This document shows positions 14,366 through 50,844 of a DNA stretch of 64,000 bases, piece by piece. How positions within the stretch are numbered: the first letter of the stretch is position 1; each line of letters opens with the position of its first letter. Origin of the DNA: an uncultured Trueperaceae bacterium (GTDB lineage: Bacteria; Deinococcota; Deinococci; Deinococcales; Trueperaceae). The notes under the pieces are model-generated. The model saw nothing but the letters and a program-made list of their open reading frames with translations. It did not search any database and had not been told where the DNA came from. The stretch covers positions 128,001-192,000 of the forward strand of contig CAWFFU010000010.1 of assembly GCA_963815215.1 (NCBI GenBank). Reading direction: 5' to 3'. The translations under genes and the position numbers were made by a program.

Positions 14366-15328
14366 ATGAACGCATCTTCGCGCTCTGCAGGGAAGCAGCG
14401 CGGGCTCGAGGCCTGCGTGACGCCACGAGGCATCATCGCGGCGCTGGCCATCGATCAGCGCGGCAGCCTGCGCAAGGCGCTCGCGAAGGCTGCGGGCAAG
14501 GGGCCCGCAGAGGTGACCGACGCCGATCTCGCCACCTTCAAGGCGGTGGTGACGCGCGAGCTGACGCCCTGGGCGTCGGCGGTGCTGCTCGACCCGCTCT
14601 ACGGCTGGGAGGCGGCCGCCGACCGGGCGCCCGCCGCGGGACTCATCGTCGCCTACGAGAAGAGCGGCTACGACGCCACCGACGAGCACCGCATGCCGAC
14701 GCTGTTGCCGGAGTGGTCGGCCGGCCGCTTGAAGGAGGCAGGCGCGGACGTCGTCAAGGTGCTGGTCTACTACGATCCCGCCAGCCCCGCTGAGGTCAAC
14801 GAACGCAAACAGGCGTTGGTCCGGCGCGTCGGTGAGGAGTGCCGGGAGGCCGACGTCGCCTACTTCCTGGAGCCGGTCACCTACGACGGCGCTGGCACGG
14901 GCGGGGCCGAGGCCAAGCCGGAACGGGTCACGCGAAGCATCGCCGAGTGGACCCGGCCCGAGTACGGCGTGGACGTGCTGAAGGTGGAGGTGCCGGTGGA
15001 TCCGAGCTGGCTCCAGCCCGGGGCCCTGGCGTCGCAGCGCGAGCGGGTGCTGTCCGCCATGCGGCAGGCGACGGAGGCGTCGACGGTGCCCCTCATCTTC
15101 CTGTCGGCGGGTGTGGACATGGAGCTCTTCGTCCGCTCGCTCGAGCTCGCCGGCGAGGCGGGCGCGCGCTTCAACGGTGTGCTGTGCGGCCGCGCCACCT
15201 GGAAGGGCGGTATCGCCGCCTATGCGGGCGGCGGGGAGCCGGCGCTGGAGGCGTGGCTGCGAAGTGAAGGGATGGCCAACATCGAGCGCCTCAACGAGGC
15301 GCTGGAAGCGAGCGCCGCCGCGCTCTAG
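14366..15328 (+). CDS. lacD: Tagatose-1,6-bisphosphate aldolase family (class I)
   Basis: ALAIDQRGSL, YEKSGYD, GVDVLKVEVPV, FLSAGV, GVLCGRATWK. Confidence 0.88.
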   Translation: MNASSRSAGKQRGLEACVTPRGIIAALAIDQRGSLRKALAKAAGKGPAEVTDADLATFKAVVTRELTPWASAVLLDPLYGWEAAADRAPAAGLIVAYEKSGYDATDEHRMPTLLPEWSAGRLKEAGADVVKVLVYYDPASPAEVNERKQALVRRVGEECREADVAYFLEPVTYDGAGTGGAEAKPERVTRSIAEWTRPEYGVDVLKVEVPVDPSWLQPGALASQRERVLSAMRQATEASTVPLIFLSAGVDMELFVRSLELAGEAGARFNGVLCGRATWKGGIAAYAGGGEPALEAWLRSEGMANIERLNEALEASAAAL

Positions 15329-15367
15329 CCGCCGCGCTCGAAGCGCCGCGCTCGAGGCGCCGTTCGC
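15316..15367 (+). repeat. 14-bp-period tandem repeat starting in the 3' end of lacD
   Basis: CGCCGCGCTC at 15316, 15330, 15344 and degenerate CGCCGTTCGC at 15358. Confidence 0.7.
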
Positions 15368-34875: not shown

Positions 34876-36600
34876 TCAGGCCCGGTCCGGCGTCCGGTCG
34901 CTCGGGCCGGTCCGGCGGGCGCGCAGGCGGTTGGCGAGCGCCAGCCGCAACTCGCCCCACGCTCCCACCGGCGAGTCGGCGATGGCCACGGCCTCCAGCG
35001 CTCTCAGCACCCCGACGCCGGGAGGGTGGGCCAGGTAGCGCGGCTCCCAGTCGGGATGGAACTTGCTCTTGAACACGTGCAGGCCCTTGAAGTTGTACAG
35101 GGCGTTGCCGCGCTCGAAGACCGTCGCGAGCGCGCGCTCGGTGAGCGGCGCCCGCGCCGAGGCGTCGAGCCCGCTCAGCGCCGACAGGCCGAGGTCCGCC
35201 CGCTCCACCCCTTGCTCGCGCAAGCGTTCCAGGAGCCGCACGAACAGGAACAGCATGGTCTCGGAGGGCGCGCCGTCGACGAAGCGCATGAGGTCGACCG
35301 CCAGCCCGGAGCGGCCGTACTCGGGGATGAGGTTCACGAACGCCTGCACCGCGGCGTCGGGTCCTTCCACGGTGACCACCGGGCAGCCGGCGATGTAGGC
35401 CTCGTCGTAGCGGCCCAGCGAGAAGTCCTTCTCGGAGGTACGCCGGCTCCGCAGCCACGCCGCGGACACGGCGGCCAGGGCGTGCAGGCGTTCGGGCGGT
35501 TGCGGCGGGTCGTGCCACACCACCCGGTACCCCTCCCGGTCCATCCGGTTCACGCCGGCGCGCAGGTTCTTGTTGCGGGCACCGGAGAGGGTGAACGACG
35601 CCAGCGCGACGACCGCCTGCTGGCCGATGAGGGTGGTCTGCAGGCCGGCGGCCCGGTAGTGCGCCCGGGCGTCGGGCCGTACCTGGTAGAAGACCGGTCG
35701 CCAGGCGCGCTCCCGGCAGAAGCTCACGAACGCGGCGGCCGCGGCGGCGGCGTCCTCGTCCGGGCCGATCGGGTCGCCCAGCGCCAGCCCGACGTTGCCG
35801 ACCGGCTTGTAGGCGACGACCGATCCGCCTGGGGTGAACAGGTACTGCTTGTTGCCCAGCAGGGCGATGTGGGCCAGGCTGGAGCGACCGTGCGCATCGA
35901 CGATGGCCTGCGCAGCCCGGCGCTCCGGCTCGCCGGCGCGGTCGCGTTCCACCACCGGCCGCAGGGCCATCACCACGGCGGTTCCGAGGCTGGCCGCCGC
36001 CAGCAGGTAGATGCTGTCGAGGAAGAAGTGCGCCAGCCGCGTGTGCGGCAGGGGAGGGGCGCCGAAGGTGAACATCGAGACGGTGGCCGACAGTGCCTGC
36101 GGGAGGCTCAGCCGCAGGTGGAACTCGCGGTCGAGTGCGTCGTAGCCGAGGGTGCCGTAGAGCAGCGTCACGAACACCGCCAACGCCAGCACGCGCAGCG
36201 CCATGCGCGCCGTCGGGTGGTCGTGGCGCGCCACGAACTGGTGCCGGCCCAGCAACAACAGGCCGAGCATCAGCAGGCTGACGGCGGCCGCCTCGAGCTC
36301 GAGCCCCTTGAGCAAGTTGGCCAGCGTGCCCAGGCTCAGTACCGCCACGCTCAACCACCAGGCGTTGCGTTGCCGTCGTGCCAGCCCGCGCGCCAGGACC
36401 AGCAGGGCGAAGCCTGCCAGGCCGGCGGCGAGACGGCTGGCGGCGCGGTACTCGAACGGGACCACGGCCCGTAGCAGGTCGAGGCGTTCGGGCACGACGG
36501 CCTTGGCCGCCGACCAGATGTCGACCAGACCCACCGCGAACACCAGCAGCACCGCCAGCCGCACCCACCCGCCGGCGGCGAGGTGAAGGCCCCGCCTCAC
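34876..36600 (-). CDS. MprF-like aminoacyl-phosphatidylglycerol synthase domain protein (DUF2156) with about 6 TM segments
   Basis: LALGDPIG, EKDFSLG, VDLMR, LGLSAL, YNFKGLHVFKSKFHPDWEPRYL. Confidence 0.88.
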   Translation of the reverse strand: MRRGLHLAAGGWVRLAVLLVFAVGLVDIWSAAKAVVPERLDLLRAVVPFEYRAASRLAAGLAGFALLVLARGLARRQRNAWWLSVAVLSLGTLANLLKGLELEAAAVSLLMLGLLLLGRHQFVARHDHPTARMALRVLALAVFVTLLYGTLGYDALDREFHLRLSLPQALSATVSMFTFGAPPLPHTRLAHFFLDSIYLLAAASLGTAVVMALRPVVERDRAGEPERRAAQAIVDAHGRSSLAHIALLGNKQYLFTPGGSVVAYKPVGNVGLALGDPIGPDEDAAAAAAAFVSFCRERAWRPVFYQVRPDARAHYRAAGLQTTLIGQQAVVALASFTLSGARNKNLRAGVNRMDREGYRVVWHDPPQPPERLHALAAVSAAWLRSRRTSEKDFSLGRYDEAYIAGCPVVTVEGPDAAVQAFVNLIPEYGRSGLAVDLMRFVDGAPSETMLFLFVRLLERLREQGVERADLGLSALSGLDASARAPLTERALATVFERGNALYNFKGLHVFKSKFHPDWEPRYLAHPPGVGVLRALEAVAIADSPVGAWGELRLALANRLRARRTGPSDRTPDRA

Positions 36601-36648
36601 GGTGCTCGCCTCACGGTGCTCGCCTCACGATGTTCGCCTCACGGTGCC
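36593..36648 (-). repeat. 4 x 14-bp tandem repeat forming a chain of three GTGA-coupled 5-codon mini-ORFs
   Basis: TCAC at 36597, 36611, 36625, 36639; minus-strand unit AGCACCGTGAGGCG. Confidence 0.85.
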
Positions 36649-37298
36649 TGCCTCGCGCCGCGGCGCGCGCGCGCACCCAGCAGCCAGCCGAGCGCGCCGC
36701 CGTAGACGACCGTGAAGAGGTGCTCGGCGCCGGCGTTGACGTCGCGCCCCGGCACGCCATGCGCCGTCGCCGCGGCGAGCCAGCCCACCGCCGTGACGAC
36801 CGCGAAGGCGGGCACAAGCCAGCGCCAGCGCGGCGTCATCGCCAGGGCCAGCGCCAGCGCCCCGAAGTAGCCGGCCGACGCGCCGACGTCGCGAGCGTTG
36901 CGTACCAGCCCAGCGGTGGGCGGCAGCACGTAGAGTAGCGCCAGCGTCAGGAACGACAGCACGTGTAGTCCCAGGAACGCCAGGGCCGCCCACCAGCTGC
37001 CCGCTCGGCGTTCGAGCAGGCCCACCCCGAGGCCGGTCAGGGCCAGCGCCTGCAGCAGGCTCCAGGGGTCGGTGGTGAACCAGGCGGCGCCGAGGAGGCG
37101 CAGTAGATCCAGCGAGAGTCCGTCGGTCGGTCGGAATCCGGCATCGTGGATCACGTAGCGCGGCACCGCGTGCCAGGCGCTGCCGGTCAGCAGGCCGACC
37201 ACGACGAGCACGAGGAGCAACGTCAGCGTGACGGGATAGCGCCGTAGGCCGCGGAGCCTGGGAGGGGTACGAGAGGAGGGTAGGCCCGAGGACGCCAT
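36639..37298 (-). CDS. Integral membrane protein, rhomboid-like
   Basis: About 6 TM segments; LLERRAGSW, DVGASAG, EHL; start at ATG 37298 avoids overlap with the divergent gene. Confidence 0.65.
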   Translation of the reverse strand: MASSGLPSSRTPPRLRGLRRYPVTLTLLLVLVVVGLLTGSAWHAVPRYVIHDAGFRPTDGLSLDLLRLLGAAWFTTDPWSLLQALALTGLGVGLLERRAGSWWAALAFLGLHVLSFLTLALLYVLPPTAGLVRNARDVGASAGYFGALALALAMTPRWRWLVPAFAVVTAVGWLAAATAHGVPGRDVNAGAEHLFTVVYGGALGWLLGARARRGARQAP

Positions 37299-37405
37299 CC
37301 ACCGCCAGGATAAGCCCCGCCCGCTCCCCGAATCGGGCCGGAGACGACCGTGAGGGCGTGTCTGGGGCGTGCCGAGCCGGCGATGAGCGTGGTATGTCGG
37401 TAGGC

Positions 37406-38209
37406 ATGAGCGAGGCGGCGCTAGGCAGTCCGTGGTGGGGCGAGATGGAGCTGACGCCGGGGGAGCTTCGCCACTGGCACGTTGGACCCTACCGACTGTG
37501 GGTGCGGGCGATGGCACTGGAGTGGCGCCTGTGGAGCCTGTCGAGCGTCGAGGCCATGGCCGAGGAGATGGTGCTCGGCGCCGAGGCGCAGGACGGCGAG
37601 GTGCCGGCCGAGGCGGTGCTCACCCGGGTGGGGTTGAACTCGGCGCGTCCGGTCCTCGAGCTGCGGCCGGCGCTGGCCGACCGCGACGTGGTGGTGCGCC
37701 CCGACACCCCGGTGGTGGTGCCGGGCGGGGCGAGGCTCGAGCTCTACGTCACCACGCCGGTGTGGGTCATCGTGCGTGCCGGCGGGGGCGTGCCGCTCCT
37801 CGATGAGCCCAGCCTCCGCCTCTCCGATACCTGGTTCGGCCCCAACACGCTGGAGGGGGAGCTTGCCTACGCCATCCGCACGGCGGCGAGGCTCGATCTC
37901 GAGGAGCTGCCGCGCCGCCCGCACCGGGCCATCACCAAGGTGGTCGTCGTCAACGGAGCGCGCGAGGCGCTGGTGCTCGAGAAGCTCAAGGTGCCGGTCG
38001 CCGGCCTGGTGCTCTACACGTCCCAGGGCAGCGGACTGTGGACCGACCAGGTCACGCTCGAGCGCAAGCAAGGGAGTGGCGTGGCCGAGGCATCGGTGGG
38101 CGCCGGGCCGAACGTACCGGGCGTGGACGCCGAGCGCATCGCCGAGCCCCGCGTCACGACGCCGTCACGCTTCTCGCTGAACGCCTTCGGGCGGCTGCTG
38201 GGCGTGTGA
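37406..38209 (+). CDS. Conserved hypothetical protein (DUF432-like) upstream of MscS
   Basis: LRPALADRDVVVRP, LSDTWFGPNTLEGELAY; co-oriented with MscS. Confidence 0.6.
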   Translation: MSEAALGSPWWGEMELTPGELRHWHVGPYRLWVRAMALEWRLWSLSSVEAMAEEMVLGAEAQDGEVPAEAVLTRVGLNSARPVLELRPALADRDVVVRPDTPVVVPGGARLELYVTTPVWVIVRAGGGVPLLDEPSLRLSDTWFGPNTLEGELAYAIRTAARLDLEELPRRPHRAITKVVVVNGAREALVLEKLKVPVAGLVLYTSQGSGLWTDQVTLERKQGSGVAEASVGAGPNVPGVDAERIAEPRVTTPSRFSLNAFGRLLGV

Positions 38210-50216: not shown

Positions 50217-50800
50217 GCGTCCGTCCCTTCGTGGCCCGGATCGCGCTCCGCGCGCAGCCAGGCGAGTGCGTGGTTCTGGAGCTCCTCGGTACGCTCGGCG
50301 GCGACCACGATCACACCGTCGGCGTCGGCGAGGACCAGATCGCCGGGAGCGATGCTCACCCCCGCGACCTCCACGGCGACATCCAGCGATCCGGCCGAGG
50401 TCGGCTCGCCGCGGGCCGGCAGGCTGCCGCGGGCGCGGACGGCCAGGCCGGTGGCGGCGACCGCGCGAACATCGCGAACGTAGCCGTCGACGATCACGCC
50501 GGCTGCGCCGCGTTCCAGGGCGACGGCCGTGAGCCGGTCGCCCCATAGCGCGGCCTCGAGGCCGGCCGCCGCGATCACCAGGACCTCGCCGGGTCGCAGC
50601 GCCTGCGCGCCTGCGCGCACCGCCGCCAGGTCGCCGTCCGGCGCGGACACGGTGCGTGCGACGCCGGCGAAGTCCCCGCCGAGGTGCACCTGCCACACCG
50701 GACCGGTGGCGCGGGCCACGCCGCGGTCGCACAGCATGCAGCTGACGCCGCCGTCGGCCAGGGCCGGGGCGAGCAGGCGTGCGGCGTCGCCGGCGCTCAC
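50213..50800 (-). CDS. RraA/HMG-aldolase family protein
   Basis: FAGVARTV, ALWGD, DGYVRDV, PGDLVLADADGVIVV. Confidence 0.85.
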   Translation of the reverse strand: MSAGDAARLLAPALADGGVSCMLCDRGVARATGPVWQVHLGGDFAGVARTVSAPDGDLAAVRAGAQALRPGEVLVIAAAGLEAALWGDRLTAVALERGAAGVIVDGYVRDVRAVAATGLAVRARGSLPARGEPTSAGSLDVAVEVAGVSIAPGDLVLADADGVIVVAAERTEELQNHALAWLRAERDPGHEGTDA

Positions 50801-50844
50801 GAGCGGCGCCTCACGAGCGGTAACTCACGAGGCGTGCCTCACAG
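50796..50844 (-). repeat. Diverged 4 x 14-bp repeat forming a chain of three GTGA-coupled 5-codon mini-ORFs
   Basis: TCAC at 50797, 50811, 50825, 50839. Confidence 0.8.

Follow-up and report, generated by a model that had tools for sequence, protein, structure and literature searches.

A copy-variable 14-nt tandem array on the stop/start junction of a carboxypeptidase and an RraA-like gene in a Truepera-like bacterium, probably a young repeat with a built-in chain of mini-ORFs

Mycobacterial interspersed repetitive units (MIRUs), which are said to have been described by Supply et al. in 1997, have units of tens of bases and mycobacterial hosts. According to extracts of PMC12548453, they insert at start codons, where the gene becomes coupled, at −4 nt, to an open reading frame (ORF) within the repeat. 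MIRUs are the closest described case to the element considered here, an array of 14-nt units that occupies the junction between the genes for an M32 (Taq-type) carboxypeptidase and an RraA-like protein in an uncultured Trueperaceae bacterium. The array lies in a stretch of 64,000 nt (assembly GCA_963815215.1, contig CAWFFU010000010.1, positions 128,001 to 192,000), referred to below as the window; its genome is designated G000 (the window being G000:C10:128001-192000), whereas other G numbers denote compared relatives and X numbers denote metagenome runs. It is quite probable that the array is a young, lineage-specific and copy-variable variable-number tandem repeat (VNTR) of the carboxypeptidase/RraA stop/start junction, in which a relay of overlapping mini-ORFs arises automatically and along which a hand-over of ribosomes may be inferred.

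As far as the extracts of PMC12548453 describe MIRUs, the two have in common that they are intercistronic, often tandem and copy-variable, that an ORF of the unit is coupled at −4 nt to its neighbour, and that expression would hardly be disturbed. However, the unit is 14 nt long here, as opposed to tens of bases; units are made locally from the junction and are locus specific, whereas MIRUs constitute one dispersed sequence family; and the host is a Truepera-like member of the Deinococcota. The junction array is not a member of the MIRU family. An earlier, sequence-only reading of the window had put the junction forward as an undescribed system, a claim that has to be given up in so far as MIRUs, in the extracts cited above, are a precedent for repeat ORFs coupled at −4 nt. 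A literature search in which subscription journals were thinly covered returned no description of 14-nt junction arrays or of tandem-repeat richness in Truepera-like bacteria. Plain −4 nt overlaps (ATGA or GTGA), for which termination-reinitiation coupling was reportedly described by Huber et al. in 2019, correspond to each step of the chain; the difference is that four of them occur here in series, separated by 5-codon ORFs with no conserved peptide. With VNTRs and slipped-strand duplications, the array shares head-to-tail copies, length differences of one unit (14 nt) and homogenised units, but the repeat here sits exactly on a stop/start overlap and has a translational reading. Leader ORFs of bicistronic designs and upstream ORFs (uORFs) are likewise short, embed a Shine-Dalgarno (SD) sequence and end on the target start, as extracts of PMC12548453 describe them, yet the junction array is natural and three-fold, and it is an upstream gene, not a 5′ leader, that feeds it. 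Finally, the TAACTGA heptamer repeats of Beggiatoaceae and cyanobacteria are also short, stop-codon-bearing direct repeats found just 5′ of starts; in the extracts of PMC4679880, however, a fixed heptamer is present at 169 loci, whereas here each locus has its own unit.

Both genes and the array are located on the minus strand, and the array is read along that strand. From 50842 to 50797 it reads (CT)GTGA GGCACGCCTC GTGA GTTACCGCTC GTGA GGCGCCGCTC GTGA (GCGCC), i.e., four GTGA cores separated by 10-nt spacers (N10). Its tandem nature is directly observed: Tandem Repeats Finder (TRF) calls head-to-tail units of period 14 (3.8 copies, 79% matches; Table 1). The pattern GTGA-N10-GTGA-N10-GTGA has four matches in the window, confined to this array (50797-50842) and to a sister array at 36597-36642, and none in 100 dinucleotide shuffles of the window. 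All four cores are GTGA at period 14, with an xTGA stop/start overlap at each step, and three 5-codon mini-ORFs bridge the two genes, which are separated by a stop-to-start gap of 38 nt; every TGA overlaps the following GTG. This anatomy (four GTGA, the 14-nt period, and the mini-ORFs MRHAS, MSYRS and MRRRS) had been claimed from the letters alone and is confirmed by the sequence, TRF and the pattern search. The claimed match in period and core number with the sister array also holds.

The RraA-like start proposed in the same reading, at 50800, is the first start codon of the ORF and is supported by an alignment in which GTG-AGC/AGT-GCC (N-terminus MSA...ARLLAPAL) is found across G000, G008, G003 and G004. 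The RraA frame is closed upstream by the TGA of core 2, so that no in-frame ORF of greater length exists. The C-terminus of the carboxypeptidase (...YRELYDL* or ...YRELYHL*) stops at the equivalent place in relatives. A scan between the two genes found no promoter-like or terminator-like site. The nearest named relatives belong to Truepera, the carboxypeptidase being 70% identical to a protein from a metagenome-assembled genome (MAG) of Truepera radiovictrix.

Table 1. Features of the carboxypeptidase/RraA-like junction and of the sister junction (positions in the window).
Feature	Position	Strand	Remarks
14-nt tandem array	50791..50842	-	3 full units + terminal core
Core 1, GTGA	50839..50842	-	TGA 50841-50839 = M32 carboxypeptidase stop; GTG 50842-50840 = mini-ORF 1 start
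Mini-ORF 1	50825..50842	-	GTG AGG CAC GCC TCG TGA (MRHAS*); GAGG 8 nt 5′ of next GTG
Mini-ORF 2	50811..50828	-	GTG AGT TAC CGC TCG TGA (MSYRS*)
Mini-ORF 3	50797..50814	-	GTG AGG CGC CGC TCG TGA (MRRRS*); TGA overlaps RraA-like start
Core 4, GTGA	50797..50800	-	GTG at 50800 = RraA-like start; MSA... N-terminus kept in G008, G003, G004
Upstream gene: M32 (Taq-type) carboxypeptidase, 516 aa	50839..52389	-	PF02074, Peptidase_M32, 6e-171
Downstream gene: RraA-like/aldolase family protein, 195 aa	50213..50800	-	PF03737, 6e-34
Sister array	36597..36642	-	4 GTGA cores, period 14; TRF 3.9 copies, 90% matches
Membrane-protein ORF flanking the sister array	36639..37517		
MprF-like gene flanking the sister array	34876..36600		

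Turnover of copies and units is directly observed in near-identical DNA. G008 and G000 have 100% identical RraA proteins and share 98.5% identity over the 3582-nt locus; G008 retains four GTGA cores with the 14-nt period, and its spacers are GGCACGGCTC, GGTACCGCGC and GGTACCGCGC. The identity of units 2 and 3 is what would be expected under unit turnover. Six of the 30 spacer bases differ from G000, compared with 48 of 3552 (1.35%) in the rest of the locus (P=2.7e-6, and P=0.003 even if a neutral rate of 5% is assumed), and the SD-like motif of mini-ORF 2 is GAGG in G008 but weakened to GAGT in G000. A metagenome contig from X6 (6300 nt, spanning the whole stretch) is without exactly 14 nt at 50810, which leaves three cores, while contigs from X1 and X3 carry a G008-type array and a contig from X13 an intermediate one. 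Across G008, X1, X3, X6 and X13, all nine variable positions lie in spacers. G003 (78% identical) and G004 (77%) lack the array and have a 54-nt non-repeat spacer at the junction. In G006 and G018 the RraA-like gene is preceded by an M20 peptidase gene instead, the junction in G006 being a single GTGA overlap. A search of relatives with the RraA protein returned identities of at most 41% and was uninformative for the junction.

Absence of the array from most congeners is also observed at equivalent junctions elsewhere. At the sister junction, six of eight congeners have a single 4-nt overlap (GTGA in G003, G004, G007, G001 and G002; ATGA in G005), G008 has three cores, the first of which is mutated to TTGA, and four are present in G000. 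In the latter, the 10-nt stretch preceding core 1 (GGCAGGCACC) is similar to the spacer of the units (GGCGAGCACC) and GAGGC is repeated at a 14-nt distance across the junction; together, these indicate that the sister unit consists of the upstream gene's tail and the overlap. The same layout is found at C12:44719 (HemC to DsbD_TM-like; period 14, four cores), at C7:12020-12067 (GT2 glycosyltransferase to an unnamed gene; period 11, five GTGA cores, unit GTGACGCCGTG, mini-ORFs of four codons) and at C14:49827 (period 14), where the upstream gene actually ends at core 2. Period-15 arrays sit on the G000 junctions C3:1172536 and C11:638052. Among ten congeners, the HemC to DsbD_TM-like junction is a single overlap in five, a 14-nt array in four (four cores in G000, three in G008, three in G003 and four in G004) and a 17-nt duplication in one; the last, in G001, is independent (ATGA-N13-GTGA), and both 14 and 17 are of the form 3n+2. 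For C7:12020, the junctions in relatives were not syntenic or were N-masked, and orthologous junctions were unrecoverable. The units of junction arrays differ from locus to locus and share only xTGA(R)G. There is no evident functional link within the flanking pairs (M32 peptidase/RraA-like, unknown/MprF-like, HemC/DsbD_TM-like, and GT2/unknown), which argues against selection for stoichiometry.

Junction arrays are recurrent, young and unstable, and the plain 4-nt overlap is the usual state. The sequence-only reading took the recurrence as a sign of selection on the architecture. The layout does recur, in this genome and in congeners, but it is not conserved, and a recent tandem duplication would by itself yield invariant cores and spacing. 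Similarly, it described GTGA and the spacing as invariant while the spacers diverge; the cores do vary less than the spacers, but neither core number nor period is fixed, as the number differs in near-identical DNA and periods of 11 and 15 also occur at junctions of the same genome. Nor is the architecture conserved, given the non-repeat spacer in G003/G004 and the single overlaps at the sister and HemC junctions. Orthologues with a single overlap or a random spacer had been named in advance as evidence that would speak against the proposal, and such orthologues were found in G003/G004 and at the other junctions.

Several further arrays and junctions were noted. Long period-14 xTGA arrays with six to eight cores are present at G004:C14:102273-102374, G003:C4:956921-956994, G003:C4:970354-970427 and G009:C457:3980-4067. 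The arrays at G004:C14:102273 and G003:C4:956921 begin on a gene stop and continue into non-coding sequence, their far ends not meeting the start of any gene, and the one at G009:C457:3980 has no link to the stop or the start of a gene. Window positions 15314-15362 hold a period-14 array of 3.5 copies (unit GCCGCCGCGCTCGA), in which the TAG of the first unit (15326-15328) is the stop of a listed, putative ORF, 14366..15328(+), and later units have TCGA; overlapping ORFs are listed on both strands in the region around this ORF. A conserved non-repeat junction at G000:C3:457115-457144, with orthologues in G003, G005, G002 and G008, contains three xTGA at intervals of 13 nt, together with a strong AAGGAGGAG motif (ATGA.CCCCCGTC.TGAAGGAGGAGCTTGA); this site is probably an ordinary conserved operon junction.

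A genome-wide background of arrays is observed in G000, a genome of 3.32 Mb with 70% GC. TRF (period 8-30, at least 2.8 copies, score of at least 50) yields 237 non-redundant arrays, whose periods are sharply peaked at 11-15. Relative to a crude gene model based on GC content at third codon positions (GC3; 2382 ORFs, 81% of the genome), which misses genes, mis-sets starts and was left unused for start-dependent statistics, arrays inside ORFs number 1, 53, 7, 4 and 52 at periods 11, 12, 13, 14 and 15, respectively, and those outside or partly outside ORFs number 10, 16, 15, 16 and 27. This period spectrum is the signature of mutational tandem duplication of 11-15 nt, with selection purging frame-breaking duplications from genes, and the narrow range of unit lengths suggests a mechanistic ruler in replication or repair. 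The arrays are clustered (on average 4.8 per 100 kb, with 0-18 among the 22 chunks), for example at C2:32020-36235, C10:291697-300954 and C11:478876-487294. In 100-kb samples, ten arrays were found in the congener G003, four in G019 (another genus of the same family) and none in G026; since G026 is of the same order and also has 70% GC, repeat richness is a lineage trait rather than an effect of composition. Among 84 non-coding arrays, GTGA occurs 13 times versus 8.0 expected and TGAG 15 times versus 6.4, an enrichment too weak for a motif-specific mechanism.

For the 14-nt period there is a mutational reason in microhomology at that distance. The genome contains 428 plain overlaps (crude criteria), SD-like motifs peak at −12/−11 before the overlapped starts, and a GAGG at −12 and the GAGG within GTGAGG are 14 nt apart. 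Junction-spanning direct repeats of at least 5 nt were found in ten cases at a distance of 14, compared with three at 13, five at 16, five at 17 and seven at 11. The relay form also follows from the position of the repeat. The first TGA stops the upstream protein and the last xTG starts the downstream one, so both proteins are unchanged by tandem duplication of xTGA, and a period of 3n+2 puts each TGA in frame with the preceding xTG, which makes the relay automatic. The cores are identical because they are copies of one unit and because the outer two are the real stop and the real start.

The array probably originated by slippage or microhomology-mediated duplication in a Truepera-like genus of the Deinococcota that is rich in 11-15-nt arrays. 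With a duplicated unit that holds the overlapped GTGA and has a length of 3n+2, each copy becomes a 5-codon mini-ORF whose TGA overlaps the next GTG. Ribosomes terminating at the carboxypeptidase UGA would then reinitiate on the overlapping GUG, and three further −4 overlaps would pass them on to the RraA start, each step possibly being aided by an SD-like GAGG (or GAGU, for unit 2 of G000) that precedes the following GUG by 8 nt. The 3′ end of the 16S rRNA carries CCTCC (anti-SD CCUCC), and de novo initiation at each GUG would therefore also be possible. For gene pairs native to E. coli and Haloferax, extracts of PMC10666635 report that an additional gap of 14 nt lowers termination-reinitiation by 40-80% and one of 38 nt nearly abolishes it, and that the last 15 nt of the upstream ORF are enough for coupling. 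In spite of the 38-nt gap, translation is probably still handed over by way of the relay; the genes would thereby stay coupled, so that expansion would be tolerated and nearly neutral, and arrays that break the hand-over would probably be removed by selection. It should be noted that very short ORFs may lose ribosomes by peptidyl-tRNA drop-off, in which case the chain might attenuate coupling rather than fully keep it.

The array might instead be a dedicated, positively selected relay or attenuator, whose GTGA chain serves to set the RraA:carboxypeptidase ratio, with a tuned number of steps. This appears unlikely, but a number of observations weigh in its favour and against a repeat that is merely tolerated. 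At the carboxypeptidase/RraA junction, the 16 core bases are free of variable sites (p=0.013; p=0.088 for the eight internal-core bases on which the genes themselves place no constraint), and in three array families found by flanking-gene homology the T, G and A of internal cores are polymorphic at none of nine family-positions, compared with 15 of 30 in the spacers; at the x position, variation is limited to bases that permit a start codon (A/G, plus G>T in G008). Exact bridging ORFs also exist where there is no repeat: the 54-nt spacer of G003/G004 is one 19-codon ORF (MSREPQEPDRKGARERRLP) that begins in the ATGA at the end of the carboxypeptidase gene and finishes in the GTGA where RraA starts, and in G009 a 14-codon mini-ORF bridges a non-repeat spacer at a junction of the C14:49827 type. 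The layout recurs at several junctions in several congeners, and six junction arrays were observed in G000 versus approximately 0.6 expected if arrays were uniformly distributed (84 arrays per 649 kb of 'non-coding' DNA × 428 junctions × approx. 10 positions). Triples of xTGA at period 14 outnumber a reversed-pattern control by 84 to 11 in ten genomes; genus-wide scans, which covered periods 11, 13, 14 and 15, gave 27 versus 9 at period 13, 23 versus 2 at period 11, and 300 (mostly codon-periodic coding sequence) versus 27 at period 15. When arrays were classified by at least three cores and at least 60% spacer identity, periods of the form 3n+2 were enriched at true junctions (6/30 for periods 11 and 14 vs. 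2/43 for periods 12, 13 and 15; Fisher p=0.058) and among gene-linked arrays (18/30 vs. 12/43, p=0.008), the comparison for true junctions in G000 alone being 4/10 versus 2/18 (p=0.15); period 14 is represented here by 30 loci among the matches listed and period 15 by 16 loci, picked by eye for repeated spacers from 150 listed of 300 matches. The selection tests involve post hoc grouping, related genomes, partial locus sampling and the crude GC3 gene model. A census of two-core arrays (single mini-ORFs) by period was dropped, as GC-rich first codon positions fake a 3n+2 enrichment: owing to their high GC, out-of-frame ORFs pass the GC3 threshold at 3n+2 but not at 3n+1. Taken together, the selection tests lean towards selection, and none is conclusive. 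Core invariance in particular loses weight as evidence, since concerted evolution keeps cores without selection. Moreover, a dedicated device is difficult to reconcile with its absence from equivalent junctions in most congeners, with copy numbers that differ among near-identical sequences, with units unrelated between loci, with functionally unlinked gene pairs, with period-15 arrays on junctions, and with a microhomology that explains the period mutationally. What selection there is probably acts as a purifying filter, which lets an expansion survive if the hand-over is kept and eliminates the rest, with no device selected for its own sake.

A related idea is that of an evolvable rheostat, in which slippage would often change the number of reinitiation steps, each step would pass on a fraction of the ribosomes, and selection would keep 3n+2 units with intact cores; this is quite improbable. 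It is harder still to regard the array as a series of sites at which a regulator binds the DNA or RNA (iteron- or TAACTGA-like), with incidental stop/start content. The regular spacing immediately 5′ of a start codon would suit such sites, and intergenic TAACTGA direct repeats before starts have been proposed as such in the extracts of PMC4679880, but the arrays have no unit sequence in common beyond xTGA(R)G, the spacers change fast (as between G000 and G008), G003/G004 have no array, and the enrichment of GTGA and TGAG in non-coding arrays is merely 1.6-2.3-fold. An RNA structure formed by pairing of neighbouring units (an attenuator, terminator or processing site) is hardly credible. CUCGUGAG (window 50801-50838, minus strand) is self-complementary if G-U pairs are allowed, and the minimum free energy (MFE) fold contains a 12-bp hairpin of units 1 and 2; nonetheless, its −40.5 kcal/mol compares with a shuffle mean of −42.8 (z=+0.68), 147 of 200 shuffles are at least as stable, the units of other arrays are not self-complementary, and nothing terminator-like was seen in the scan between the genes. 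That the array is due to chance or to faulty assembly has next to no probability: nothing beyond the general difficulty of assembling repeats speaks for the latter, independent assemblies contain the array (G008 and the contigs of X1, X3, X6 and X13) and its 46 nt are shorter than a read, and chance would have to produce a pattern that was absent from every shuffle of the window.

If the array is a VNTR of the junction, the 4-nt stop/start overlap offers a place for short tandem duplications to expand with both proteins unaltered. Survivors tend to keep the overlap chain and thus provide a natural experiment on the importance of coupling, in which the insert lengths that persist can be counted. 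If, on the other hand, the rheostat were real, populations could tune the ratio of neighbouring products with the proteins untouched, and the junction would be a contingency locus acting on translational coupling. For annotators and screeners, the junction is a warning that repeat instability can produce 'relay' architectures as a by-product. The parts most worth following are the frame filter at junctions and the lineage's richness in 11-15-nt repeats, more than the single locus. This richness may stem from something peculiar about how DNA is replicated or repaired in a radiation-resistant lineage.

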